A stretch of DNA of 64,000 bases from an uncultured Christensenellaceae bacterium. GTDB taxonomy: Bacteria; Bacillota; Clostridia; Christensenellales; CAG-1252. The DNA is taken from NCBI GenBank assembly GCA_964561145.1, contig CAZLNZ010000006.1:1-64000 (forward strand), in the 5' to 3' direction. The translations under genes were made by a program, and so were the position numbers. The notes beneath the pieces are model-generated. The model was not told the origin of the DNA. It ran no database searches and worked only from the letters and a program-made list of their open reading frames with translations. Shown here piece by piece: positions 3,610 to 15,777 of this stretch (its first letter is position 1; each line of letters begins with the position of its first letter).

Positions 3610-3636
3610 TTGACTTTAGTTTGAATGTGGTATAAT
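3610..3636 (+). promoter_or_regulatory. Promoter-like element TTGACT-N15-TGgTATAAT, carrying the conserved GAATGTGGTATAATA module.
   Basis: -35 at 3610-3615 and extended -10 TGgTATAAT at 3628-3636. The same module recurs in the type-1 repeats. Confidence 0.4.
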
Positions 3637-3721
3637 ATTTTCACAAAGTTTTCAAATGACATTTAGACATGATTGCATTTTCTACTAAAAAAATGAAAAA
3701 TACTGTAAAGTTTATATGTAA

Positions 3722-3757
3722 ATGTCATACTGAGCGAAAGGAATGTGGTGTAATAGA
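3722..3757 (+). repeat. Type-1 short repeat ATGTCATACTGAGCG(A/G)AAGGAATGTGGT(A/G)TAATA, copy 1. It contains an extended -10-like TGgT(A/G)TAAT.
   Basis: Five copies in the window: 3722, 6131 and 6413 on the plus strand, 8611 on the minus strand, plus the module alone at 3623. Confidence 0.8.
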
Positions 3758-3843
3758 ATACAAAATAATTCAAATGATGAAGTGACATTCAAAAAAATTA
3801 GATAGTAAAAAAAAATCAGATTATTACTAAAGAACTGTATAAA

Positions 3844-3930
3844 ATGTCATACTGAGCGGAAGAAATTGGTAACAATTTCAGCAGTCGAACCCCATAGGGG
3901 CGAGGTGCAACCTCGGTATCTCATCCGCAT
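3844..3930 (+). repeat. Type-2 structured repeat, copy A. Layout: ATGTCATACTGAGCGGAAG, a variable hairpin, GTCGAA, hairpin CCCCAT(A/C)GGGG, hairpin CGAGGTGCAACCTCG, then GTATCTCATCCGCAT.
   Basis: Five copies with conserved flanks and a variable central segment. Copy D carries compensatory substitutions in both conserved hairpins. Confidence 0.8.
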
Positions 3931-4030
3931 TATTCCTAGACAAGGATTCAAATCACCATTGCTTTTGATTGAGGAATCACTTTCTCATACTAATAATCAT
4001 TAAAGAATACAGCATTGCATGTTTTAGTAT

Positions 4031-4085
4031 CCCCTATTATACCCCTTGACAAAAGGGTATAATAGGGGTATAATGGGTATAACGA
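4031..4085 (+). promoter_or_regulatory. Perfect consensus sigma70 promoter (TTGACA 4046-4051, 17-nt spacer, TATAAT 4069-4074) embedded in a 14-bp-arm palindrome (cccctattataccc / gggtataatagggg). It is followed by a second GGGTATAAC copy and drives the ATPase gene at 4100.
   Basis: Read directly: ccccTTGACAaaagggtataataggggTATAATgggtataacg. An AAGGAG ribosome-binding site sits at 4087-4092 and the ATG at 4100. An inverted variant lies at 10336-10392. Confidence 0.7.
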
Positions 4086-4099
4086 AAAGGAGATGTAAT

Positions 4100-5911
4100 A
4101 TGGACACTATGAATATACAAAATCGAATTACAGAACTTGAAGCACGTATTGAAACTTTACCCAAAGGTTCTATAGCTAAAAAGAGTATAAACGGTAAAAC
4201 ATATTACTATCATCGATACAACGAAAGCGGAAAGAGAGTCGAAAAGTATATTGATCATGATTCAGTGGAAACTCTTCGTAATCAAATTGATGAGCGAAAG
4301 CTTTTGGAGGCAAGATTGAAGGAGTTGAAGAAAAAAATCGATGTACCACTGAGGAAAACGCAAAAGAAAGAAGTGTTTACCTTTAATTCATCGATTCTTA
4401 TAGGTGATAAACTGAAAAGATTTGTTGCCGAAGTGAAGGCTTATAAAAAGAGGGAATGTTTCTCACAGCTTCATAATTTTATATACAACGATGTCAAGGA
4501 TAGAGTATTTATTCTATATGGTTTGCGTCGTACCGGGAAAACTACAATGATTCGTCAGGCACTTGCCGATATGACCGAAAAGGAAATAGCTAAATCTGCA
4601 TTTATTCAAGTTTCACCTAAAGATACGCTCGGGGGTGTTAACAAAGATTTGATGCTTTTGGAACAAGGTGGCTATAAGTATATTTTCATTGACGAGGTCA
4701 CCTTTATGGCTGACTTCATCGAGGGTGCGGCACTTTTCTCTGATGTATTTGCTACATGTGGTATGAAAATCGTTCTTTCAGGAACCGACTCTCTGGGCTT
4801 TATGCTATCTAAAAGCGAGCAGCTCTATGATAGGTGTATTCTCCTTCATACAACCTTTATCCCCTACAGAGAGTTTGAAAAAGTACTCGGTATAAAAGGG
4901 ATAGACGAATTTATTCGCTATGGTGGCACCATGAGCCTTGGCGGTATCAATTACAATGAAGGTTTTTCATTCAGTAATACGAATACAGTAAACGCATATG
5001 TTGACAGTGCAATTGCAAAAAACATCCAACACTCCTTAAAGTATTATCAGGATGGCAGTCATTTTCGCAATCTAGCAGATCTTTACGAAAAAAACGAGCT
5101 AACCAATGCTATCAATCGTGTGGTAGAAGACATTAACCATCGCTTTACAAAAGAAGTAATTACTCGTGAGTTTAAATCAGGTGATTTGTCACGTTCGGCA
5201 AGAAATTTACGCAGAGATCGCTTTGCACCAAATACAATCCTTGACGATATCGATATTAAAGCCGTAACCGAAGAGCTCAAGAGTCTTCTTGAAATCCTTG
5301 ACGAAGAGGATCAAATGGTTAAGGTGGACGACATCCACGCTGCAGAGATTAAAGAATATCTTATTCTTCTTGATCTGATTTACGAAATTGACGTGCGAAG
5401 TTTCCCGAATGTGAATGACATCAAAAAGAACATAGTTGTATCACAGCCCGGAATGAGATATGCACAGGCAAAGGCACTTGTTGAAAGCTTACTCCTCGAT
5501 GAAAAAATTAATGGGCTGAGCTTGCATGAACGTATGCAAGTAATCGAGAGGCTTTTAAGCGAGATTAAGGGCAGAATGATGGAGGACATCGTCCTACTTG
5601 AAACCAAGTTAGCAAAGCCTCAAAAAGATGTCTTTAAACTTCAATTTGCCATTGGAGAGTTCGATATGGTAGTGTTTGATCCGGAAAAATTATCCTGTGA
5701 AATATTCGAGATAAAATATAGTACCCAGATAGTAGATCAACAATATCGACACCTTATTGATGAGCAGAAATGTGCACAAACCGAACACCGTTTCGGTACA
5801 ATTAAGAATAAATACGTTATCTACCGTGGATTAACCGAGATTGTTAACGGTATACATTATATAAATGTTGAAGAATACCTGAACAATTTGTGTAACGATA
5901 ATTCCCTATAA
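4100..5911 (+). CDS. AAA+ ATPase of the AAA_14/DUF4143 family (COG1373-like). It has an N-terminal ~100-aa extension with a coiled coil and a possible AP2/arm-type DNA-binding motif.
   Basis: Walker A motif GLRRTGKTT; DUF4143-like C-terminus (FEIKYSTQIVDQQYRHLIDEQ). The start is placed at 4100 rather than the ORF-track 4046 because the RBS and promoter lie within 4046-4099. Confidence 0.7.
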   Translation: MDTMNIQNRITELEARIETLPKGSIAKKSINGKTYYYHRYNESGKRVEKYIDHDSVETLRNQIDERKLLEARLKELKKKIDVPLRKTQKKEVFTFNSSILIGDKLKRFVAEVKAYKKRECFSQLHNFIYNDVKDRVFILYGLRRTGKTTMIRQALADMTEKEIAKSAFIQVSPKDTLGGVNKDLMLLEQGGYKYIFIDEVTFMADFIEGAALFSDVFATCGMKIVLSGTDSLGFMLSKSEQLYDRCILLHTTFIPYREFEKVLGIKGIDEFIRYGGTMSLGGINYNEGFSFSNTNTVNAYVDSAIAKNIQHSLKYYQDGSHFRNLADLYEKNELTNAINRVVEDINHRFTKEVITREFKSGDLSRSARNLRRDRFAPNTILDDIDIKAVTEELKSLLEILDEEDQMVKVDDIHAAEIKEYLILLDLIYEIDVRSFPNVNDIKKNIVVSQPGMRYAQAKALVESLLLDEKINGLSLHERMQVIERLLSEIKGRMMEDIVLLETKLAKPQKDVFKLQFAIGEFDMVVFDPEKLSCEIFEIKYSTQIVDQQYRHLIDEQKCAQTEHRFGTIKNKYVIYRGLTEIVNGIHYINVEEYLNNLCNDNSL

Positions 5912-5940
5912 CACGCATCTATAAAATCCATACATCGTAG

Positions 5941-5971
5941 GGCGGGGACTTGACTCCCGCCGAATCTTTTT
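5941..5971 (+). terminator. Rho-independent terminator after ATPase 1: GC stem gcggggA...Tcccgc followed by a T-run.
   Basis: ggcggggacttgactcccgccgaatcttttt. Confidence 0.55.
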
Positions 5972-6130
5972 ACACTACGGTGTTCCACACGCCTGCTATC
6001 CCTCAATCTCTAGGCTACGCCTTTCGACAGCCCCTTTTTCACAAGCAATGTGTTGGCTTAAGAAAACCTGTATAAACACAAGCAAAAGTGGTATTAAAAG
6101 GATATCGATTTACAGCAAAATCACATCTCA

Positions 6131-6165
6131 ATGTCATACTAAGCGGAAGGAATGTGGTATAATAA
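6131..6165 (+). repeat. Type-1 repeat, copy 2.
   Basis: atgtcatactaagcggaaggaatgtggtataataa. Confidence 0.8.
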
Positions 6166-6248
6166 ATTAAAAAAGTAAATGCCAAAGTACACTATAGAAT
6201 GCAAAAATCCTTCTAGAAAATCGAAAAGTATCGCAAAAGTATACATTA

Positions 6249-6410
6249 ATGTCATACTGAGCGGAAGGTGAAGCCTGGAGTCGAACCCCATCGGGGCGAG
6301 GTACAATCTCGGTATCTCATCCGCATTCACTCGCATTGCTTTACACAAGGCAGCCTTTTCCTATGGTGTGTTAATACAAAATTCTAAAATAATTGCCGGC
6401 AAATTATCTA
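6249..6410 (+). repeat. Type-2 repeat, copy B (6249-6326), plus a conserved 3' extension (tcactcgcattgctttacacaaggcagccttttcctatggtgtgttaatacaaaat..). The extension is shared with copy C.
   Basis: The extension at 6327-6400 is near-identical to 6621-6690. Confidence 0.8.
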
Positions 6411-6412
6411 AA

Positions 6413-6447
6413 ATGTCATACTGAGCTAAAGGAATGTGGTACAATAA
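6413..6447 (+). repeat. Type-1 repeat, copy 3.
   Basis: atgtcatactgagctaaaggaatgtggtacaataa. Confidence 0.75.
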
Positions 6448-6542
6448 TTTCAAAAAGAACTAAAATCACAAAAAACATGCAGAGAAATTGAAACGCTATA
6501 ATATAGTGCGAATATTGGCAATAATACCAGTAATCCATATAA

Positions 6543-6700
6543 ATGTCATACTGAGCGGAAAGCGAAGCTTGTAGTCGAACCCCATCGGGACGAGGTGCAA
6601 CCTCGGTATCTCATCCGCATTCACTCGCATTGCTTTACACAAGGCAGCCTTTTCCTATGGTGTATTAATGCAAAATCTTAAAATAATTATCAGTAAATTG
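6543..6700 (+). repeat. Type-2 repeat, copy C (6543-6620), plus the shared 3' extension. Together with 8449-8527 (minus strand) it forms a perfect ~80-bp inverted repeat with an identical variable segment (AGCGAAGCTTGTA).
   Basis: The reverse complement of 8449-8527 aligns base-for-base with 6543-6620 apart from about two mismatches. Confidence 0.85.
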
Positions 6701-6706
6701 TTTAAG

Positions 6707-6790
6707 ATGTCATACTGAGCGAAGGCGTAGCCGTAGTCGAACTCCGCAGGAGCGACACTCGGTGTCGGTATCTCATCCTTGTTAATCGGC
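6707..6790 (+). repeat. Type-2 repeat, copy D, divergent. Hairpin 2 changes from cccc-atc-gggg to ctcc-gca-ggag. Hairpin 3 changes from cgagg-tgcaa-cctcg to cgaca-ctcgg-tgtcg. Both changes are compensatory.
   Basis: Base pairing is preserved while the primary sequence changes on both strands of each stem. Confidence 0.75.
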
Positions 6791-6910
6791 ATCTCAATCC
6801 TTATAAAAAGGTCGCAGTGACATAAAAATGTACTGTATCATAAATTTAAATCCAAAATTAAGCCCTCCCTATGTTACTCTTGCAAAAATGTTTTGCTGTT
6901 TTACACAACA

Positions 6911-6993
6911 ATATTGAAAAGTCAACAAAATTAACCTTAAAAACTATTGAAAAGTCAATGAATATGTGTTAAAATAATATTGAAAAGTCAATG
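6911..6993 (+). repeat. Three direct repeats of (A)TATTGAAAAGTCAA(T/C), starting near 6911, 6944 and 6975, immediately upstream of and overlapping the start region of ATPase 2.
   Basis: Spacing of ~33 bp, which is about three helical turns. Confidence 0.7.
6947..6975 (+). promoter_or_regulatory. Promoter TTGAAA-N17-TGtTAAAAT for ATPase 2, overlapping the middle direct repeat.
   Basis: -35 at 6947-6952; extended -10 at 6967-6975; GGAGG at 6994-6998; ATG at 7003. Confidence 0.5.
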
Positions 6994-7002
6994 GAGGTGT
7001 CT

Positions 7003-8319
7003 ATGCTTTACAGAAAAATTGAAAAAGTTATTACTTCTCATCTAAAATCCGGCACTAACAAAATATTAATTGTAGATGGTGCAAGACAGGTTGGTAAGTC
7101 TTATATAATTAGATATATTGGAAAAAAGCTTTTTAAAAACTATGTTGAGATAAATCTCTTAGAGGATTCTTTAGGTAGGAAAGCCTTTGAAAATGTTAGA
7201 ACTGTTAAAGACTTTTACTTTCGTGTAAGTATGTTCGCAGGCAATAATATGGGTTCTAAGGAAGATACCATCATTTTTCTCGATGAAATACAAGTATACC
7301 CCCATTTGCTCACATTACTAAAATTTTTAAGGGAAGATGACAAGTATAACTATATCGCAAGCGGGTCTTTATTGGGCGTTACTCTTGCAAAAACCTCATC
7401 TATTCCTATGGGTAGTATTTCCGTGGTTCAAATGTACCCTTTGGATTTCGAAGAGTTTTTATATGCCAATGGCTTTAATGAATTTGCAATTACCTCAATG
7501 AAAGAGCATTTTCAAAATATGCAAAGCCTTGAACCGACTGTACATGACTCTATACTTGATTTGTTTAAGAAATATCTGTTAATTGGCGGACTGCCCGATG
7601 CCGTTAACACCTATTTAACCGGTTTTAATATAGTCGCTGTAAGGGAAATTCAAAAAGAAATCCACGAGTTTTATAGTGCTGATGCCTCTAAATACGATAC
7701 GGAAAACAAATTAAAAATACGTCGTATTTATGATATGATACCATCGACTTTGGAGAACAAAAAAAAGAGAGTGGTAATTAAGGATATCGAAAATATAAAA
7801 GGAAAAACCTATTCTCACTATCAGGATGAGTTTGACTATTTGATTTACTCGGGAATTGCATTAGACGTAAAAGCAATCTCAACGCCCACTTTTCCGTTAA
7901 TAGAGTCAAGCGAAAAAAACTTGCTTAAGCTTTATCTTAACGATGTCGGAATACTTACAAGCATTCTTTATAATAATAACATTCTTGCGGTTCTGGATAA
8001 CGAAAAGAGTGTTAATCTTGGCACGGTTTATGAAAGCGTTGTTGCAAGCGAATTGAAGGCACATGGTAAGAGTTTGTTTTATTATGACAATCGCAGTAAC
8101 GGAGAGGTGGATTTTTTAATAGATGATTACGATAATCTATCGGCACTGCCAATTGAGGTAAAGTCAGGCAAGGACTATACGATTCACAGCGCCCTAAATA
8201 GATTTGTAACCAATAGTGATTATAATGTAAAAAAAGGGTATGTTTTATCAAATGAAAGGGAAGTATTTACTAACGGAAAAATAACATATCTTCCTATTTA
8301 CTATGTAATGTTCCTTTAA
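7003..8319 (+). CDS. AAA+ ATPase of the AAA_14/DUF4143 family, paralogous to the gene at 4100..5911.
   Basis: Walker A motif GARQVGKSY; C-terminal DUF4143 motif (PIEVKSGKDYTIHSALNRF). The start is placed at 7003 (GGAGG RBS) rather than the ORF-track 6991. Confidence 0.7.
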   Translation: MLYRKIEKVITSHLKSGTNKILIVDGARQVGKSYIIRYIGKKLFKNYVEINLLEDSLGRKAFENVRTVKDFYFRVSMFAGNNMGSKEDTIIFLDEIQVYPHLLTLLKFLREDDKYNYIASGSLLGVTLAKTSSIPMGSISVVQMYPLDFEEFLYANGFNEFAITSMKEHFQNMQSLEPTVHDSILDLFKKYLLIGGLPDAVNTYLTGFNIVAVREIQKEIHEFYSADASKYDTENKLKIRRIYDMIPSTLENKKKRVVIKDIENIKGKTYSHYQDEFDYLIYSGIALDVKAISTPTFPLIESSEKNLLKLYLNDVGILTSILYNNNILAVLDNEKSVNLGTVYESVVASELKAHGKSLFYYDNRSNGEVDFLIDDYDNLSALPIEVKSGKDYTIHSALNRFVTNSDYNVKKGYVLSNEREVFTNGKITYLPIYYVMFL

Positions 8320-8448
8320 CTAAAATCCAACTTTATCTTCTCATTTTCAACCGAACGAATGAAATCCTCATAAATTTAGCAGCCAATTTCTTGAAGCGAG
8401 GCAAAATCCTAAAGAATGGCTCGAGTGCCGTAAAGAAAATTGCCTTTT

Positions 8449-8527
8449 ATGCGGATGAGATACCGAGGTTGCACCTCGCCCCGATGGGGTTCGACTACAA
8501 GCTTCGCTTTCCGCTCAGTATGACTTA
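8449..8527 (-). repeat. Type-2 repeat, copy E, in inverted orientation. It is the right-hand partner of copy C flanking ATPase 2.
   Basis: See the 6543 entry. Confidence 0.85.
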
Positions 8528-8610
8528 ATGTATAACTTTGTTATATTATCGATTTTTTAGAAGTATTCCTGTATTTTAGAGTGCTATTTTATCATTTACT
8601 TTTTCAATAT

Positions 8611-8644
8611 TATTATACCACATTCTTCCGCTCAGTATGACATT
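8611..8644 (-). repeat. Type-1 repeat, copy 4, in inverted orientation.
   Basis: The reverse complement reads atgtcatactgagcggaagaatgtggtataata. Confidence 0.75.
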
Positions 8645-8821
8645 TAGACAGTATTTTGCTTTATAGTTAAAATCTTATATCACTATTATTACTCGCACCT
8701 ATACATGTTTTCTTTATCCCTTGCATTGCATCTCACGACTGATGCCCTTGTCTTCGGCTAACAGTTCCTACTGCCAGCCTGTAGCGGACTTTCACCGCCA
8801 AGTTATTACGCGTGCCGAGTA

Positions 8822-8869
8822 CACAAGAAAAACCGCCGTTGGTTTTACTCAAAAGCGGTCAAATTTTAT
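8822..8869 (-). terminator. Rho-independent terminator for the minus-strand AlbA_2 gene.
   Basis: On the minus strand: accgcttttgagtaaaaccaacggcggt followed by tttttcttg. Confidence 0.5.
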
Positions 8870-8876
8870 ATGTTTA

Positions 8877-10211
8877 TTATTCTTGTATCTTCCAATGTCC
8901 ACCTTTAGCTGGGCCGACATGAATTATCACTTGACTTTTCTTTAATGCCCTACTAATAGTTGGCACAGATTTTCCTGTTTTCTCTGACATTTTAGCCTTT
9001 GAGATGTATGGGTTTTCTTTAATAAGATTGATTAGCATTTTTTCTGTATCATTTTCTGTATCATTTTCTGTATCACTTTTCCCAAGTAAACGTTCTTGTT
9101 TGCTTCTGTTTAATATGTTATAGGGCAGAATACATTGTATAAATGACGAGCCAAAATGATAGGCATCTTTACCATATTTCGACACTATAGTAGGCACACC
9201 TTTTCCTGATTGTTCCATATAGTGTAATTGCATGAAAATTTTTGCAAATTCTTCATTGACAGGTTTACTGATTCCATTAAAGAATTCTTCTTTTGTCATC
9301 CCTTCAGTTAAAAGTCCGTATGAGATAATTTCTAATCTATCATCAAAACCATATATTGCCGGAGGTGTTTGTTCTACCCATAAATTATGACATACTGCAT
9401 TAAACCAAGCCTCACGGAAGGACTCATTATCAAAATACGGCGTATCGACTCTATTCTTTCCAATAATATTTGTTTGAATTATATTGAGCACATTTAATGC
9501 ATAATCCAATGCATCTTCCATTTGCTTAAAAATACATCCTCTTTCAAATTCTTTTCGTGATAAAAATTCTGCTTTGGTTGTGCCATTAAACCGAACTACT
9601 TTTATTGATGTATCATTCTGATCTGATACCAGAAATGCGATATAGTTATATTTGCCTTCATTATTTCTCAAATTATAGTTTTGTTCAAACGTTGCACCAT
9701 TAAAATGTATACCTTTAAATGCAAGTATCGCTTGAAATTGAGCAAACGATAAATCTTGACGAGGGCTTAATTTTTGTTTCATTGATTGCTTAGGAATGGA
9801 CAGTTGTGCAATATATCTTTGTTCGATTTCCTCTTCAGTCATACTACGGCAGGTCGTACCAATACGGACATAACAGCCACTTGCACTACGACCATATTTC
9901 TTTATATAGAAAAGGCCATCACCCTTGCGGACCTTTATTTCAACAACATTTTTGCCTTCAACAAACTTTGTGCCGAGCTCAATATATTTTTGTGAATTCG
10001 GTAAAATTTGCGTAGTAATTATATCTGCGATTTTCTTTTGCGTTTCATCAAGATTGTTAATACCAACAACACTTCCGTCATCTTCCACGCCGATGTAAAT
10101 AACACCGTCAAAGCTATTAAGAAATGCCACGATTTCTTTTGAAAGAGAGTCGTTCATTATTCTTTTTAATTCTACCTTTTCGGTTTCTTGGAATATCATA
10201 AAAGCACCCAC
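8877..10211 (-). CDS. Schlafen-like AlbA_2 (divergent AAA_4) domain protein. It has a RecG-C-terminal-like ATPase-fold region and a C-terminal HTH, and is typically annotated as a putative DNA-binding protein or transcriptional regulator.
   Basis: N-terminal motif ELKRIMNDSLSKEIVAFLNSFDGVIYIGVEDDGSVVGI; C-terminal HTH-like region VPTISRALKKSQVI. Confidence 0.65.
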   Translation of the reverse strand: MGAFMIFQETEKVELKRIMNDSLSKEIVAFLNSFDGVIYIGVEDDGSVVGINNLDETQKKIADIITTQILPNSQKYIELGTKFVEGKNVVEIKVRKGDGLFYIKKYGRSASGCYVRIGTTCRSMTEEEIEQRYIAQLSIPKQSMKQKLSPRQDLSFAQFQAILAFKGIHFNGATFEQNYNLRNNEGKYNYIAFLVSDQNDTSIKVVRFNGTTKAEFLSRKEFERGCIFKQMEDALDYALNVLNIIQTNIIGKNRVDTPYFDNESFREAWFNAVCHNLWVEQTPPAIYGFDDRLEIISYGLLTEGMTKEEFFNGISKPVNEEFAKIFMQLHYMEQSGKGVPTIVSKYGKDAYHFGSSFIQCILPYNILNRSKQERLLGKSDTENDTENDTEKMLINLIKENPYISKAKMSEKTGKSVPTISRALKKSQVIIHVGPAKGGHWKIQE

Positions 10212-10335
10212 TTCACTTTAAGTTATTTTAATTATAACAAAAAAAATGGAAAAATTCAACACTTACCCGATAACAATTGACTATTTTTCCTTGAATCTAT
10301 TCACTAATGATTGTATTAATCTTTTGCGATGTTTT

Positions 10336-10392
10336 TGCTATACCCCTATTATACCCATTATACCCCTTTGTCAAGGGGTATAATGGGTATAA
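10336..10392 (-). promoter_or_regulatory. Inverted variant of the palindrome-embedded promoter element. A 13-bp-arm palindrome (cccattatacccc / ggggtataatggg) carries TTGACA in its loop on the minus strand, followed by TATAAT at a 15-nt spacing and further GGGTATAAT copies. It points toward the AlbA_2 gene.
   Basis: Minus strand reads ccccTTGACAaaggggtataatgggTATAATagggg. Same building blocks as 4031-4085. Confidence 0.6.
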
Positions 10393-10469
10393 TCAATGAG
10401 GTAACCAACTGCGGACGTTTTTTTGCTATGGGGTTTGTTTATGGTGAGGTAAAGTTTATTACAGAAAAT

Positions 10470-10497
10470 AGCGAGACTTTTGTCGGTCTCGCTATCC
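10470..10497. other. 10-bp perfect hairpin (atagcgagac / gtctcgctat) adjacent to the flank homology box.
   Basis: Perfect inverted repeat read directly from the sequence. Confidence 0.4.
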
Positions 10498-10537
10498 TGT
10501 AAAGTGTAAATTTACACGAAGTAGTTAATTGTTGTTC
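10497..10537. repeat. Inverted copy of the 3'-flank homology box at 3358..3397.
   Basis: See the 3358 entry. Confidence 0.75.
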
Positions 10538-10548
10538 ACAGAGTCAAA

Positions 10549-12831
10549 GACAAATGTGGTTCCGTTACCTTTATAGTTACTACCTTTGGCTAAAGTTGTA
10601 CTTCCGGAAGTGGCGGTGTAGGTATGGTTGGTGTCTGTTTCTGAAAAGGATATTCCACTGCTCAACAATTTTGCCATTTACCGTGGTATTGACATGGATT
10701 TTAATATATGGACCCTTTTTAGTTGTTATAGTACCACCTAAAACTCCTTTTCTTTCGGTTTTAAGGGTATCATCAACAATAAAATTAACGGACTTTTTAG
10801 CATAACCACCATCATATGTAGCATATGTACCCGTAATTGGTGTTGGTTGAGCAAAATCATCACCCGTTTTAAGTGCTATATACTATTCCAGCATATTCGC
10901 TATTTGCAATAGTCACTGCAGCACCCTCTTCAATGGTTAGAGATGCACCAGACATAATCTTTAGTTTCGAATTAACGGTTACATTTCCTTCAGCAACAAT
11001 AATATTATAATATTCACAAATTGGGATTTCAACACCTTTAGACGTGACCGTATAAATACTTATTTTTAGTGTTATATTATTTGTTGTAATATTTCCGTGA
11101 GATTCAATTTTGATTTTCCCATTATTATCAACACTCTTAATAATGTAACCATCTTCGATTGTAAATAATCCACCAGCTCCCATAAAAGTAACAGAATCAT
11201 TCGCCTCAAACCCGGTTCCTGTAATATAGTAATGTGCATATAAGGAAGCTCCGCTATTAATGCTTAAAACTGTTTCTATATTTGCTACACGGAATTGGCT
11301 AAATGGGAATGATTTAAATGTTTTTGGACCAACTAAATTCCATACATCATTAACAAGTTTTAGGGCGGCGGTACCGCCGGGCCAGTCTTCAATATCAAGA
11401 AGTTCATATACTTCCGCACCGGCATATGCAATTACAGTACCAGTTCCTTTTATATAGCCAAATGAATATAATTCACCATGAACATATATATAAGAATTAG
11501 TTTCCATGCTTATTTGCCCATAATCCCCGGAGGTATATCCGGAATGGGGTTGTCCAGAAGATTGTATGCCGGAAACATTTAATATCCCAGATTTGGATAC
11601 TGTTAATGATTTATCGTTGGCAATTGTGAGAGTTCTATGTGCTGAACCTGTTGAAACACCATTCTTAGCAGTGTTTATAGTGCTTATATAGGAGTAATTA
11701 TTGCTATATGGCACTAACAAAGTTACACCACTCTTTACTGTTGCACTATTATTAAGTATGGTATTGTACATAACGACTATTGTACCGCTAGTTGTTGAAG
11801 ATAAGGCGTCCTCGATTTCTAAAAGGGTTTTAGTGTCGGTACTTAATGCAACACTTCTAACCTTGACAGTAACAGTAACCGCTTCCGTTGCCAACATGAA
11901 GTTGTCAGATTTTAAGGAAACCGTCATAGAATATGTTCCACCTTGAGAGAAGAGGTTCGTAGTATTGCCATAACTCAAGGTATAAGATGAGGTATCTTCA
12001 ATAACTGAACCGTTGTAATAAACATTAGGAATAGCCTTAATCTGATCGCCGGTATAATCAACGTAAACAAGAGAATCAATCGTTACAACCGCCTTGGAAA
12101 TCTTAAGAGTTATCTCAACACCGGTACACTCGTTATAGTTACTATCATATTCAGAACCCTTATTCCAAATTGCTGTAAAGACAGGGTACTCGTCGTCCTT
12201 TATACTAGTACGAGAAGCAGTAAGAGAGGAGTCTGTCCAAGTGTATCCTTCGGGCAGAGTGTAATTTGCAAGGGTATTGCCGCGAACATATTCGCCTGCG
12301 TTCTCAATGGTGTACTTAAGGTCGCCTGCATTCCTGCTTGCCTTATTGATGGTTATACTTATTTCTGTTGTGTAATCATCATAGTTAGTTGAATCAGGAT
12401 TATAGATTACAGCGAAGGTATGAGCTGCCTCACGAGCATTGAGGATAGTATTCTTTTGTGCATCTGTTACGGTACTTGCAAAGCTGAAACCGGCACCTGA
12501 ATTAGGAAGATCATTAAGGTAGTCTGAGACCTTCTTCTCGGGATCGAAGTCTTGCGTGATACTAGTATTAGGTATATCGGCTTCTTTTAATTGTAGCTTA
12601 CTCAAAACTTTAATGATGACAGAGACATCCTTATTATGGTAGTTGTAAGAGTCGGCATTATAGTAAGCAGAATAGCTCTTACCATCAGTACTTACAGAAG
12701 GTACTAAACTATCGTCAACCCAATAGTAACCGCTAGCCAACGTGACTTTTCCATCGGTTGATAATTTTTTCAGTGTATTCGTAGGATCATATGTTCCAAG
12801 CTCAAATTCCGTGGTGTAGATGCTAGGAATC
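10549..12831 (-). pseudogene. Silent, 5'-truncated and 3'-frameshifted inverted paralog (cassette) of the surface-protein gene. Homology to 886..3357 of the expressed gene.
   Basis: No ATG: the ORF track begins at an internal TTG (12740), and an in-frame TAG lies eight codons upstream of where the homology starts. It is identical to the expressed gene over 12326-12831 and divergent (~65% aa) thereafter. After the TAA at 10869-10871, homology to the last ~150 aa of the expressed gene (GVLGG-ITT.., ATSGSTTL.., YKGNGTTF) continues in other reading frames down to 10549. Confidence 0.75.
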
Positions 12832-13041
12832 TTAGCATAATCTTTCTAGAACCACCTTTATGTTCGATATTTTCGTAAGGCGGAGGCAAGGCTTACACTG
12901 CTATATTATGCAATATTTGTACGCAAAGAAGTTGTAATGTGGATATTTATTTGACGGGACGGCATCAAAGATGCCTGCAATCCTTCAGTCAATTCGCTAT
13001 GCTCCTTGATAGTGCCTTTTATATCGGGCAGCTTTGTTTTA

Positions 13042-13065
13042 GGATGAGATGCCGATATCTCATCC
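13042..13065. repeat. Perfect palindrome GGATGAGAT-gccgat-ATCTCATCC. It shares the GGATGAGATA/TCTCATCC motif with the 3' ends of the type-2 repeats.
   Basis: Read directly; also resembles the 3' tail of copy D. Confidence 0.5.
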
Positions 13066-13215
13066 TCATTGTTACATTAACATAGAACAACTATAGGTCA
13101 TACTATAACATCGGTTTCTTTTCCTTATGAAAAGCCGTTATTCTATACAATGATTACTGTAACCTGTGTAGTTTGGGTTGGCGGTTTGGTTATCATAGGT
13201 TGATTAAAAAAAGAA

Positions 13216-13250
13216 CGTGGTACTGAAAAACAAGTACCACGCCTTTTTTC
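13216..13250 (-). terminator. Bidirectional rho-independent terminator. It mainly serves rtcB on the minus strand.
   Basis: cgtggtact-gaaaaaca-agtaccacg with T-runs on both strands. Confidence 0.6.
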
Positions 13251-13319
13251 CTGTTTCCCCCTGCCAGGAATATTACCAATATTACCTAGAGACAAGATTA
13301 GGTAATAGAATGGTTTAAA

Positions 13320-14519
13320 TCAATTAGCGGCTTTTAAGTTATATACGGGGTATATTCTACGCTCTATATCAACTGTATCCGCTATGTTTGCAATGAGGGT
13401 GTTTACGCTCTTATATGCATCGGGGCTTTCATCAAGCGTCCCTTTGCAAATGGAAGTGGAGTAGATGCCCTTCATTTGCTGCTCATACGTATCCATGGAT
13501 AAGGTTTGGAACGCCTTCGAGCGGCTCATAAGTCGTCCGGCTCCATGAGGAGCACTTTGGTTCCAGTCCTTATTTCCAAGTCCGATACATATCAAAGCAC
13601 CGTCACGCATATTGATGGGTATCAATAACCTTTCACCCAAACGAGCTGAAACAGCACCTTTACGTAATATATTATAGTCGATATCGATGTAATTGTGAAC
13701 CGTTGTAAAGGTATTTTTTATATTAATTTTCATTATTTTTTCTATTTCAGCCATCATTGCTTGTCTATTTAGCTCCGCGAAATGCTGTACGATTTTCATA
13801 TCGTGAATATAGTCCTCAAAATCTTTTCCTTCAACATACGCTAGTTCTTTTGGAATGTCGCATTTTTGCTTTTCAAGATCTCGGAGTTTCTTTTCTATCT
13901 GCTTTTCGTGTCCTTTTCTTTTTAGTGAATCGATAAGTGTATTAATTTGCTCCTGTTTCTTATCGGAAAAACGTCTATATGCAAGCTTTTGATAGTAGGA
14001 GGCGACCTCTACACCTAGGTGACGGCTTCCGGAGTGAATAACAACATAAAGATTTCCTTCATCATCCTTATCTACCTCTATAAAGTGATTTCCGCTACCT
14101 AGTGTACCTATGCTAAGCATGGCTCGATTATGGTCTATACTTTTATAGCAACGGAGCTCGGTAAGATCGATTTTTTCCGAATACGGGTGTGGCATTTTTC
14201 GTATACTATTACCTGTTGGAATGTTTTGACGTATGCCTTTGTCGAGATCGGGGAAAGAAAGCTCCTTTTCTTCGATTTGAGCAACCTCCATTCCACAACC
14301 GATATCTACGCCCACCATATTGGGAATCACTTTATCCGTTATTGTCATAGTCGTTCCTATCGTACAACCCGCACCCATGTGGACGTCGGGCATAATGCGT
14401 ATTTTACTTTTTTCGAATGGCTTGAAATCGCATAATGTTTTAATTTGTTCTATTGCACCCTGTTCTATTATGTCGGTATAAATCTTCGCACTGTTATGCT
14501 TACCTTTTATCGTCATCAT
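13320..14519 (-). CDS. rtcB: RNA ligase RtcB (release-factor-H-independent short form, ~399 aa).
   Basis: Motifs MPDVHMGAGCTIG, GSGNHFIE and APHGAGR. AAGGAGG RBS 8 nt upstream. Confidence 0.85.
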   Translation of the reverse strand: MMTIKGKHNSAKIYTDIIEQGAIEQIKTLCDFKPFEKSKIRIMPDVHMGAGCTIGTTMTITDKVIPNMVGVDIGCGMEVAQIEEKELSFPDLDKGIRQNIPTGNSIRKMPHPYSEKIDLTELRCYKSIDHNRAMLSIGTLGSGNHFIEVDKDDEGNLYVVIHSGSRHLGVEVASYYQKLAYRRFSDKKQEQINTLIDSLKRKGHEKQIEKKLRDLEKQKCDIPKELAYVEGKDFEDYIHDMKIVQHFAELNRQAMMAEIEKIMKINIKNTFTTVHNYIDIDYNILRKGAVSARLGERLLIPINMRDGALICIGLGNKDWNQSAPHGAGRLMSRSKAFQTLSMDTYEQQMKGIYSTSICKGTLDESPDAYKSVNTLIANIADTVDIERRIYPVYNLKAAN

Positions 14520-14760
14520 GTCTGATACCTCCTTCGTTTTATATTAATATTATATCAGTCTTTTTCGACTTTTAGTAGTACGCAGTTATTAATAAAAAAG
14601 TGCCCCCTTGTTTTTGCACCAAATGTGGCTTTGTTATAAGAAAAAATGATATAAATCGTGTCTTTACGTTTTATTGAATGGGGAATCTGTGTTTTTTAAT
14701 AAGGATATCACTTTACTTACGCCCCCTTTTTGTGGTACATTATATTCATAGGAGGTGGTT

Positions 14761-15777
14761 ATGACCTACGATAAAATCAAGATATACGTTACACCAAGGG
14801 TGGGCGACATACTTTCAAACGATGCCGACAGCTTTGAATTCTATAAGTCGGACGGTGTTACTCCAAATAAAAATGGATTGTTAACTAGACTTATAGTTAA
14901 CTATTCTCAAGAGTTTAACGAAAGACAGGAAAGGTTATATGATAGGATTAATTGTGAATTGAGAAAAGTGTTTATCGATGAACAAACCAGGGATAATCTT
15001 TGTAATGAAATTGCCAACAAGGTTAACAAAGAGCTTTCGTCGGATTCTACGGAAAAGTTTAATCGCTTGATTTCTCTAAAACCCACAAAAGAAACAGCAC
15101 CTTTGATAGAATATGCAGAGAATTATTTGTTGAAGGGTGCATCTTTGTCAGAGTATTATCGTAATATGTTTACGGCATATGCGAGCTTTACGCAAGATAA
15201 ACGTGAGGAGATTATTTTTAAAGAAAATTATGACTTGCTATCGAAGGCTATCAACGAGGGTAAAAAGGTCTTTATTACCACACGTGCTAAGGCTCGTTTT
15301 TACGAGCTTTCACCCTATGCTTTTGCTCGTTCAAAGGAGGAAATGCATGTGTATTTATTGACAGAAAACAGAAATCGCTGTCGCACTATAAGATTATCAA
15401 GAATAGAATCCGTTGTTATTCTTAAAAAGGCGGCGACTTTTACGGAAAAAGCGGTAGCAACCTTTAAAAAGATGCAAGAATACGGACCGCAATTTTATTA
15501 TCTTGCAAATGAAGAAGAAATTGTTATTAAACTGACAAAAGAAGGGGTTAATAGATATCGTAAAATATATGTACACAGACCTATCCCTAAACGCATCGAA
15601 GGTGATCTTTATTATTTCGATTGTTCTGCCAATCAAGTTGTAGAGTACTTTAAAAGGTTTGGTGATGAGGCATATGTGGTTTCTCCGCCCGGTGTTCGTG
15701 AGTCTATATTAAGCTTTCATTATCGTGCCGTAAAAGCATATAGAGGGAAGAGCAACTCTTCTCCGAATAATAAGTAG
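14761..15777 (+). CDS. WYL-domain protein with a WCX-like C-terminus and an N-terminal region of unknown function. It is divergent from rtcB.
   Basis: WYL core MHVYLLTENRNRCRTIRLSRIESVVIL. The C-terminus (GDEAYVVSPPGVRESI) resembles the WCX extension. AGGAGG RBS 5 nt before the ATG at 14761. Confidence 0.55.
   Translation: MTYDKIKIYVTPRVGDILSNDADSFEFYKSDGVTPNKNGLLTRLIVNYSQEFNERQERLYDRINCELRKVFIDEQTRDNLCNEIANKVNKELSSDSTEKFNRLISLKPTKETAPLIEYAENYLLKGASLSEYYRNMFTAYASFTQDKREEIIFKENYDLLSKAINEGKKVFITTRAKARFYELSPYAFARSKEEMHVYLLTENRNRCRTIRLSRIESVVILKKAATFTEKAVATFKKMQEYGPQFYYLANEEEIVIKLTKEGVNRYRKIYVHRPIPKRIEGDLYYFDCSANQVVEYFKRFGDEAYVVSPPGVRESILSFHYRAVKAYRGKSNSSPNNK

Follow-up and report, generated by a model that had tools for sequence, protein, structure and literature searches.

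Are two short repeats that recur together in the DNA of an uncultured Christensenellaceae bacterium parts of one element, and if so, what kind of element do they form? The stretch concerned (contig CAZLNZ010000006.1 of assembly GCA_964561145.1, positions 1 to 64,000; hereafter the window) is 64,000 nucleotides (nt) long, or 128 kb with both strands counted. Both repeats begin with the same 19-mer, ATGTCATACTGAGCGGAAG: in type-1 it is followed by GAATGTGGTATAATA, giving 34 nt in all, and in type-2 it is followed by a module of three hairpins. An earlier reading made from the letters alone (the sequence-only reading) took type-1 to be a portable promoter module set at a fixed distance upstream of type-2, and the pair to be either a transcription unit or a composite resembling a miniature inverted-repeat transposable element (MITE). 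Our preferred answer, which we hold with about even confidence, is that type-1 and type-2 belong together as the two conserved halves of a single composite repeat, dispersed and non-coding, of approximately 200-215 base pairs (bp), which carries a promoter and would most likely be transcribed into a structured RNA. This repeat is confined to a small clade of uncultured Clostridia.

Copies were matched with up to 3 mismatches for the 34-mer and for the 19-mer, using shuffled sequence as a control. The 34-mer is present on the plus strand at 3722, 6131 and 6413 (1-3 mismatches; 0 in 100 shuffles), and a fourth type-1 copy, with a 1-nt deletion, lies on the minus strand at 8611-8643. The 19-mer occurs nine times, always inside 3722-8643 (shuffles yield 0.01): at 3722, 3844, 6131, 6249, 6413, 6543 and 6707 on the plus strand, and at 8508-8526 and 8625-8643 on the minus strand. 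All four type-1 copies stand upstream of a co-oriented type-2 copy, as the sequence-only reading had it, at 117-130 nt from start to start (122, 118, 130 and 117 nt in units A, B, C and E, with gaps of 88, 84, 96 and 84 nt). The mirrored order that it described for the minus strand is likewise present at 8449-8643; its coordinates for the two parts, 8644 and 8527, are each off by one, as type-1 there lies at 8611-8643 with its 1-nt deletion. Two partial copies had been missed: a divergent fifth type-2 (unit D) at 6707 with no type-1 ahead of it, and a fifth promoter half, GAATGTGGTATAATA, at 3623 without the 19-mer. The latter lies 118 nt (one period) 5' of the next promoter half, indicating that the promoter-plus-spacer module is tandemly doubled at 3611-3755. 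A covariance model built from the five type-2 copies found no further copy in the window, and local alignment against shuffles found no degenerate extra copies in the flanks 5912-6130, 8320-8448, 10212-10868 and 12741-13320, where only an unrelated palindromic promoter repeat matched. Chance similarity or an assembly artefact, for which nothing speaks except the general AT-richness of the region, has a negligible probability: it is already refuted by the absence of matches in shuffles and by the same sequences in independent Logan assemblies of the read sets SRR10277277, SRR10277276 and SRR33036520.

TGTGGTATAAT is a full extended -10 element of Firmicute type (TRTGnTATAAT), and the match to this sigma-A consensus is exact at 3626, 6153 and 8622 (minus strand); the difference from it is that the hexamer is changed in 3 of the 7 module copies known from the window and its relatives. 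TACAAT at 6440 retains A2 and T6, TGTAAT at 3749 is without A2, and the copy in one relative (L030) reads TACAGC, with TATAAT in the other four (three in the window and one in another relative, L024). The shorter motif TGnTATAAT is found at only 9 sites in the 128 kb: three are type-1 modules, and three others immediately precede the Schlafen/AlbA_2, RtcB and PHP genes, where a good -35 is likewise absent, so that the module has the architecture of the organism's own promoters. The description of type-1 as the 19-mer joined to an extended -10 is thus upheld, the full element being present at 6153 and 8622 (minus strand) in the same -35-less arrangement. The promoter is co-oriented with type-2, or with its 19-mer start, in all six units available (four in the window, one each in L030 and L024), and the promoter module of a related organism reads GGAATGTGGTATAATT. 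The 19-mer is dispensable to the module, as its place is taken by TTTAGTT... both at 3623 and in L024, and the module is never found alone ahead of a gene; neither a need for the 19-mer nor the portability of a 35-bp module, the latter put forward in the sequence-only reading, is supported. No terminator-like site follows type-2 on its own strand at any copy, and without an intrinsic terminator transcription could run into the downstream DNA.

A further motif, AAATGAYAAAA, lies approximately 20 nt 3' of the -10 in every promoter module, relatives included (3650-3662, 3768-3790, 6176-6186, 6462-6472 and 8592-8582 on the minus strand; 4938-4948 in L030; approximately 128-118 on the minus strand of L024). 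In some copies it is complementary to the start of the 19-mer (ATGACATTTA at 3656). Short open reading frames (ORFs) starting there are not conserved; a small spacer ORF from the conserved ATGA was considered and rejected, as such frames lack a ribosome-binding site and run for no more than 3-30 codons.

In type-2 the 19-mer is followed by three short hairpins, P2, P3 and P4. P2 varies in both length and sequence (GAAATTG-GTAA-CAATTTC, AAGC-GAA-GCTT, GGT-GAA-GCC and GGC-GTA-GCC), P3 is CCCC-ATC-GGGG (CTCC-GCA-GGAG in the divergent copy) and P4 is CGAGGT-GCA-ACCTCG (CGACAC-TCG-GTGTCG in the divergent copy). The linkers between the hairpins, GTAGTCGAAC and GTATCTCATCC(GCAT), are single-stranded and invariant. 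Changes on both sides are seen in 7 of the 19 predicted pairs, with 94.6% of cells paired; the covariation score was reached by none of 500 shuffles, and sliding the partners lowers pairing to 33-50%. On the promoter strand the P2 loops read GUAA, GAAA, GAA and GUA (GNRA or GNA), which weakly favours an RNA made from that (plus) strand.

The two modules are well conserved and the sequence between them is not. Among the four window units, type-1 has a mean identity of 0.90, the 19-mer of 0.94 and the type-2 core of 0.85 (0.90-0.97 leaving out the different P2 of unit A), versus 0.62 for the spacer, for which shuffled sequences gave a mean of 0.54 and a maximum of 0.61. Spacer subfamilies span species: the spacer of unit C resembles that of the L030 unit, and the spacer of unit B resembles that of unit E. 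The tandem units B and C share an 86-nt tail after type-2 (approximately 90% identical) that is absent from the other copies, and the centres of their spacers are unrelated. In unit E a spacer of B type is combined with a type-2 of C type (over 76 nt, 99% complementary to that of unit C), and every part of the L030 unit is C-type. As spacer and type-2 subfamilies are crossed in this way, the copies are mosaics in which promoter/spacer and type-2 parts reassort. Together with the doubled promoter module at 3611-3755 and the solitary type-2 at 6707, these mosaic combinations amount to a modularity like that of BOX elements (compared below).

Mosaic copies with breakpoints at the 19-mer would also be expected of an element that acts as DNA, with hairpins and linkers serving as recognition sites for a transposase or recombinase supplied in trans (for example, a Y1 enzyme of the IS200/IS605 or RAYT type acting on single-stranded DNA), the 19-mer as the recombination core, and the likeness to a promoter incidental to AT-richness. 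DNA hairpins would give compensatory changes just as RNA hairpins do, and the -10 is decayed in 3 of the 7 module copies. The tail motif GGTATCTCA recurs in two arrangements that resemble protein-binding sites: direct repeats with a spacing of 21-22 nt and, at 13043-13068, a perfect inverted site (10-6-10). The short subterminal hairpins, and the lack of terminal inverted repeats and target-site duplications, are as in REP (repetitive extragenic palindromic) and IS200/IS605-derived elements: no terminal inverted repeats bound a unit (ATG is all that the left end ATGTCATACTGAGCGG has in common with the reverse-complemented right end ATGCGGATGAGATACC), and the DNA on either side of the five type-2 copies and of the four composites shows no target-site duplication. 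We nevertheless regard this explanation as unlikely, since none of the 26 window ORFs scanned encodes a transposase or recombinase, a plus-strand RNA is the better fit to the GNRA-type P2 loops and to the promoter's orientation, and the promoter module, which shares the architecture of the host's own promoters, is conserved to the same degree as type-2. The comparison with MITEs holds in part: the copies are dispersed and differ in presence or absence between genomes, but with neither terminal inverted repeats nor target-site duplications the repeat is not a classical MITE.

Under the composite-repeat reading that we prefer, the first module would provide a sigma-A extended -10 (TRTGnTATAAT) with no usable -35, usually with the 19-mer ahead of it and AAATGAYAAAA after it. 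An A-rich spacer of 84-96 nt (138 nt in one relative), poorly conserved across subfamilies, would lead to the second module, made up of the 19-mer, the variable P2 with its GNRA or GNA loops, P3, P4 and the invariant linkers. Firing of the promoter would yield an RNA of approximately 170-200 nt whose 3' part is the structured module. Copies may multiply, relocate and swap modules by recombination, with the shared 19-mer, the joint between the reassorting modules, as a plausible crossover point; they would gather in an island of defence genes and behind terminators. The repeats themselves, the covarying hairpins, the promoter consensus, the dispersal, the mosaic make-up and the contrast of conserved modules with a variable spacer are observed; transcription, the strand that functions and the mode of spread are inferred. 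The proposal that promoter and structured element belong together as one unit, already made in the sequence-only reading, is borne out by their co-orientation, the covarying hairpins, the same order in two relatives and the independent recombination of the modules.

Several observations weigh against this reading. No mobility machinery or insertion signature has been identified. No covariation is seen in the closing helix P1 (5 bp), which is disrupted in the divergent copy; support is therefore limited to the three hairpins, and the sample of type-2 sequences comprises five full copies and a few truncated ones from three related organisms. Wobble pairs give no clear choice of strand for type-2, and single-sequence fold energies are ordinary (z of -3.0 for one copy, -1.1 to +0.7 for the others). 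AT-rich DNA readily gives promoter-like hexamers (a scan returned 40 sites versus 21 expected). With 3 of 7 hexamers changed, of which TGTAAT is hit at the critical second position and TACAGC is destroyed, the -10 is no better kept than its flanks, GGAATGTGG and the downstream AAATGAYAAAA, which are conserved at least as well. A bolder variant strikes us as quite improbable: the composite would be a self-propagating promoter-plus-RNA gene, selected independently of its neighbours; type-2 would be a functional structured RNA of a new class (for instance, a ribozyme, processive antiterminator or protein scaffold); and the 19-mer would serve at once as the 5' element of that RNA and as the joint at which promoter and RNA modules reassort by recombination.

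Related sequences, Logan contigs included (labelled L010-L032), were drawn in part from the three read sets named above. For the proteins of the 92-kb NCBI contig that holds the window, relatives at 90% identity or more come from one sister read set only; for RtcB the closest proteins stand at 85, 81 and 75% identity, followed by others at about 62% (Clostridia), and the distance of these relatives indicates that the lineage is poorly sampled. Copies in relatives were found by protein-anchored look-ups, which recovered the repeat family in two related organisms at other loci. In L030 (SRR10277276; RtcB 81% identical), a degenerate type-1 at 4892 is followed by a 94-nt spacer and a type-2 from 5019, downstream of the RtcB terminator. 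L024 (SRR33036520; RtcB 85% identical) starts inside the 19-mer, 138 nt downstream of CGCAAGGAATGTGGTATAATT and beside an Oxidored_FMN gene, and its other end falls within the tail of a type-2 in inverted orientation, about 600 nt away from the stop codon of RtcB. This contig is 7667 nt long, a length also recorded across read sets for the longest contigs of all members of its cluster. With spacers of 94 nt and 138 nt in these relatives, the fixed spacing expected from the sequence-only reading does not extend to other genomes. L023 (SRR10277276) encodes a DUF4143 protein at least 90% identical to that of the window and has a D-type tail upstream of the gene, as in the window, and an A-type type-2 downstream of it; the loosely similar TTGTATAAT approximately 40 nt upstream of this type-2 was not counted as a module copy. 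Downstream of RtcB there is a unit in L030, an opposite-orientation type-2 tail in L024, and only debris (13043-13110) in the window. The Logan contigs L010, L011, L023, L024 and L030, among them the window organism's own, all end within repeats.

No elements were found near DUF4143 homologues of 69-80% identity (L014-L022 and L032) or near the 75% identical RtcB relative (L025-L028), which indicates that the element is not tied to a gene family. In L032 (GCA_964621265.1), the DUF4143 homologue lies within a minus-strand cluster of transfer RNA (tRNA) genes (2660-2750 and 4800-5070), a typical integration hot spot, with no type-1 or type-2. Beyond these relatives, exact-core pattern scans of IMG/VR, GTDB species representatives and JGI metagenomes gave only chance matches in coding DNA, and blastn of the units against plasmid and phage records gave no match or chance matches of 22-27 nt. 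A chimera of all open type-2 frames (six-frame peptides) had no match at E values up to 10 among 5.8 billion proteins, suggesting that the repeats are not called as genes elsewhere.

Type-2 also does not correspond to a known RNA family among those covered by Rfam 15, which include hammerhead, twister, twister-sister, pistol, hatchet and group II D5-D6: the window gave no match at the gathering score, and the type-1 and type-2 copies gave none at E values up to 10. That type-2 is a new self-cleaving ribozyme or processing signal, which would trim the A-rich leader at the 19-mer and leave products to the nearby RtcB ligase, is very improbable in the light of this result and of a hammerhead core (CUGANGA...GAAA) that, by eye, cannot be fitted to it. 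Its three hairpins and invariant junction nucleotides are typical of small ribozymes, and RtcB lies approximately 5 kb from the units, with units or debris downstream of it in all three organisms, but this link may only mirror which region was sampled. Three further candidates were rejected. A tRNA-like origin, considered for the likeness of GTCGAAC to a reversed T-loop, does not fit the stems, and ARAGORN found no tRNA or transfer-messenger RNA genes in the window (the type-2 hairpin loops are 3 nt). Group II intron domains D5/D6 gave no RF00029 match, and D5 of the E. faecium intron is unlike type-2 by eye. An integron attC site would be one long imperfect palindrome, not three separate hairpins with an unverified 5-bp closing helix, and there is no recombinase in the scanned ORFs.

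Among known systems, the repeat appears to work most like the BOX elements of pneumococci. By architecture, both are small, non-coding, modular and clade-restricted, with extensive predicted structure and a variable number of modules: here one or two promoter-plus-spacer modules are joined to type-2, which also occurs alone. The BOX ends, boxA and boxC, are partly inverted, and BOX is not known to carry a consensus promoter. The repeat described here differs in having no inverted ends, a complete internal extended -10 and an internally duplicated 19-mer. BOX elements of Streptococcus pneumoniae (boxA-boxB(n)-boxC) are modular, predicted to be highly structured, found in a narrow clade and co-transcribed with their neighbours, and have been judged more likely to be parasitic than specialised for the host (PMC3049150). 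The Neisseria Correia repeat-enclosed elements (CREE) are similar in being roughly 100-200 bp long, dispersed, promoter-supplying and structured as RNA, at variable loci. Their repeats are 26 bp long, and they duplicate a TA target. No inverted ends or duplication accompany the repeat in the window, and its promoter is internal and complete. CREE, in contrast, have inverted repeats as their boundaries, and it is at the ends that promoters arise; they are dispersed elements that can supply promoters, are processed or structured as RNA, and vary in location by strain and species (PMC2649163).

REP/REPIN sequences and palindromes derived from IS200/IS605 are like the repeat in having neither terminal inverted repeats nor target duplications, in their short conserved hairpins, which show compensatory changes, and in lying between genes, in many cases behind a terminator. 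They need a Y1 transposase or RAYT, however, which is missing from the 26 scanned ORFs, and they are single or paired hairpins of approximately 20-40 nt, as opposed to a composite of a promoter and three hairpins. Multi-copy small RNA genes such as Listeria LhrC1-5 and the pneumococcal csRNAs have their own promoters, intrinsic terminators and conserved loci. The units resemble these in having tandem and dispersed copies, each with a promoter and a conserved structured part, and differ in having no terminator, loci that differ between related species and many truncated copies.

The units occupy a 7-kb island between core genes (Table 1) that contains two AAA_14 ATPases matching the PADLOC candidate PDC-S01, one of them also with DUF4143, as well as a Schlafen/AlbA_2-helix-turn-helix (HTH) gene and, after the terminator of that gene, a 5' fragment of a group IIC intron. 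From its gene content, the island looks like a defence or stress locus. The DUF4143 protein is at least 90% identical between organisms whose RtcB proteins are only 81% identical, suggesting lateral exchange of the cassette. Unit E faces antisense into the DUF4143 gene.

Table 1. Repeat modules, family debris and neighbouring genes in the window
Feature	Position	Strand	Description
Extra promoter module without 19-mer	3611..3637	+	TTGACT, 15 nt, TATAAT within GAATGTGGTATAATA; first of two tandem promoter-plus-spacer modules
Type-1, unit A	3722..3755	+	19-mer and GAATGTGGTGTAATA; -10 altered to TGTAAT
Spacer, unit A	3756..3843	+	A-rich, 88 nt; holds GTGACATT, complementary to the 19-mer start
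Type-2, unit A	3844..3930	+	P2 GAAATTG-GTAA-CAATTTC, then P3, P4 and tail GGTATCTCATCCGCAT
Type-1, unit B	6131..6164	+	TGTGGTATAAT intact
Spacer, unit B	6165..6248	+	84 nt; subfamily common to unit E spacer
Type-2, unit B	6249..6326	+	P2 GGT-GAA-GCC; followed by 86-nt tail approximately 90% identical to unit C tail
Type-1, unit C	6413..6446	+	-10 is TACAAT
Spacer, unit C	6447..6542	+	96 nt; homologous to spacer of L030 unit (other species)
Type-2, unit C	6543..6620	+	76 nt 99% complementary to minus-strand copy 8449-8524
Type-2, unit D, divergent, no type-1	6707..6800	+	Compensatory changes in P2, P3 and P4
Type-2, unit E	8449..8526	-	Minus-strand copy
Spacer, unit E	8527..8610	-	84 nt, B-type
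Type-1, unit E	8611..8643	-	1-nt deletion, TGTGGTATAAT intact; faces 3' end of DUF4143 gene
Decayed family debris	13043..13110		Downstream of RtcB: AGGATGAGAT-gccgat-ATCTCATCCT and GGTCATACT
Defence/stress-like locus	4100-5911, 7003-8319, 8877-10211 (-), 13320-15777		Two ATPases; Schlafen/AlbA_2-HATPase_c_4-HTH; RtcB adjoining a WYL-domain protein

This setting could suggest an RNA family that benefits the host, either as a small RNA gene that exists in several copies and brings its own promoter, or as a cis-acting leader (a transcript stabiliser or processive antiterminator) driving the adjacent defence-type genes. Units A and B-D do face the two PDC-S01-type AAA_14 genes with no terminator between type-2 and the downstream gene, the DUF4143 gene has a D-type element ahead of it in L023 as well as in the window, and the modules are conserved while the spacer is free. 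Both AAA_14 genes, however, have strong predicted promoters of their own (TTGACA-17-TATAAT at 4046-4074 and TTGAAA-17-TAAAAT at 6947-6975); unit E is antisense to its neighbour, the copies in L030 and L024 lie beside unrelated genes, and DUF4143 homologues of 69-80% identity in other organisms have no element. As locations also differ between related species and several copies are truncated or decayed, we consider a host-beneficial role decidedly unlikely.

If the repeat is a promoter-carrying composite, as we prefer to read it, its position may still matter, as small promoter-carrying repeats can alter how the genes beside them are expressed. The genes that it surrounds are candidate anti-phage genes (the PDC-S01-type AAA_14/DUF4143 ATPases and the Schlafen/AlbA_2 protein), and unit E, if transcribed, would give an antisense RNA to one of them. 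The repeat also breaks short-read assemblies of a poorly sampled clade of Clostridia, and type-2, an uncatalogued structured motif with covariation, is a candidate entry for RNA or repeat libraries. Nothing so far indicates a function of general importance.

Other features of the locus were noted alongside the repeat. The tail motif of unit D recurs 21 nt further on (GGTATCTCATCC, then GGCATCTCAATCC), with a like arrangement ahead of the DUF4143 gene in L023. In the debris at 13043-13068, a perfect 10-bp inverted pair (AGGATGAGAT-gccgat-ATCTCATCCT) derived from two type-2 tails resembles a core site of recombinase type, with the remnant GGTCATACT nearby. The intron fragment (8732-8832 on the minus strand, extending to about 8826-8700) begins with GTGTAC right after the Schlafen/AlbA_2 terminator and ends approximately 50 nt before the type-1 copy at 8643. 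It shows approximately 80% identity to plasmid DNA of Enterococcus and Staphylococcus that lies 340-440 nt ahead of ltrA, scores only 13.5 bits against Rfam group-II-D1D4-4 and has no reverse transcriptase gene.

Three more repeats are associated with the genes of the island. The palindromic promoter/operator repeat TATACCCnTTATACCCCTTGACAAAGGGGTATAATGGGTATAAT lies ahead of the 603-amino-acid AAA_14 gene (4022-4088, plus strand) and the Schlafen/AlbA_2 gene (10330-10400, minus strand); the copy at 4046-4074 is a perfect TTGACA-17-TATAAT. AATATTGAAAAGTCAA forms three direct repeats at 33-nt spacing that overlap the DUF4143 promoter (6907-6991 in the window, 90-175 in L023 and 2950-3000 in L032); this array is retained by the sister organism and, in part, at a homologue of 69% identity elsewhere, and is probably the operator or iteron array of the cassette. 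Finally, a 12-nt unit, TTTTCTGTATCA, is repeated three times in tandem at 9040-9079, inside the Schlafen/AlbA_2 coding region.

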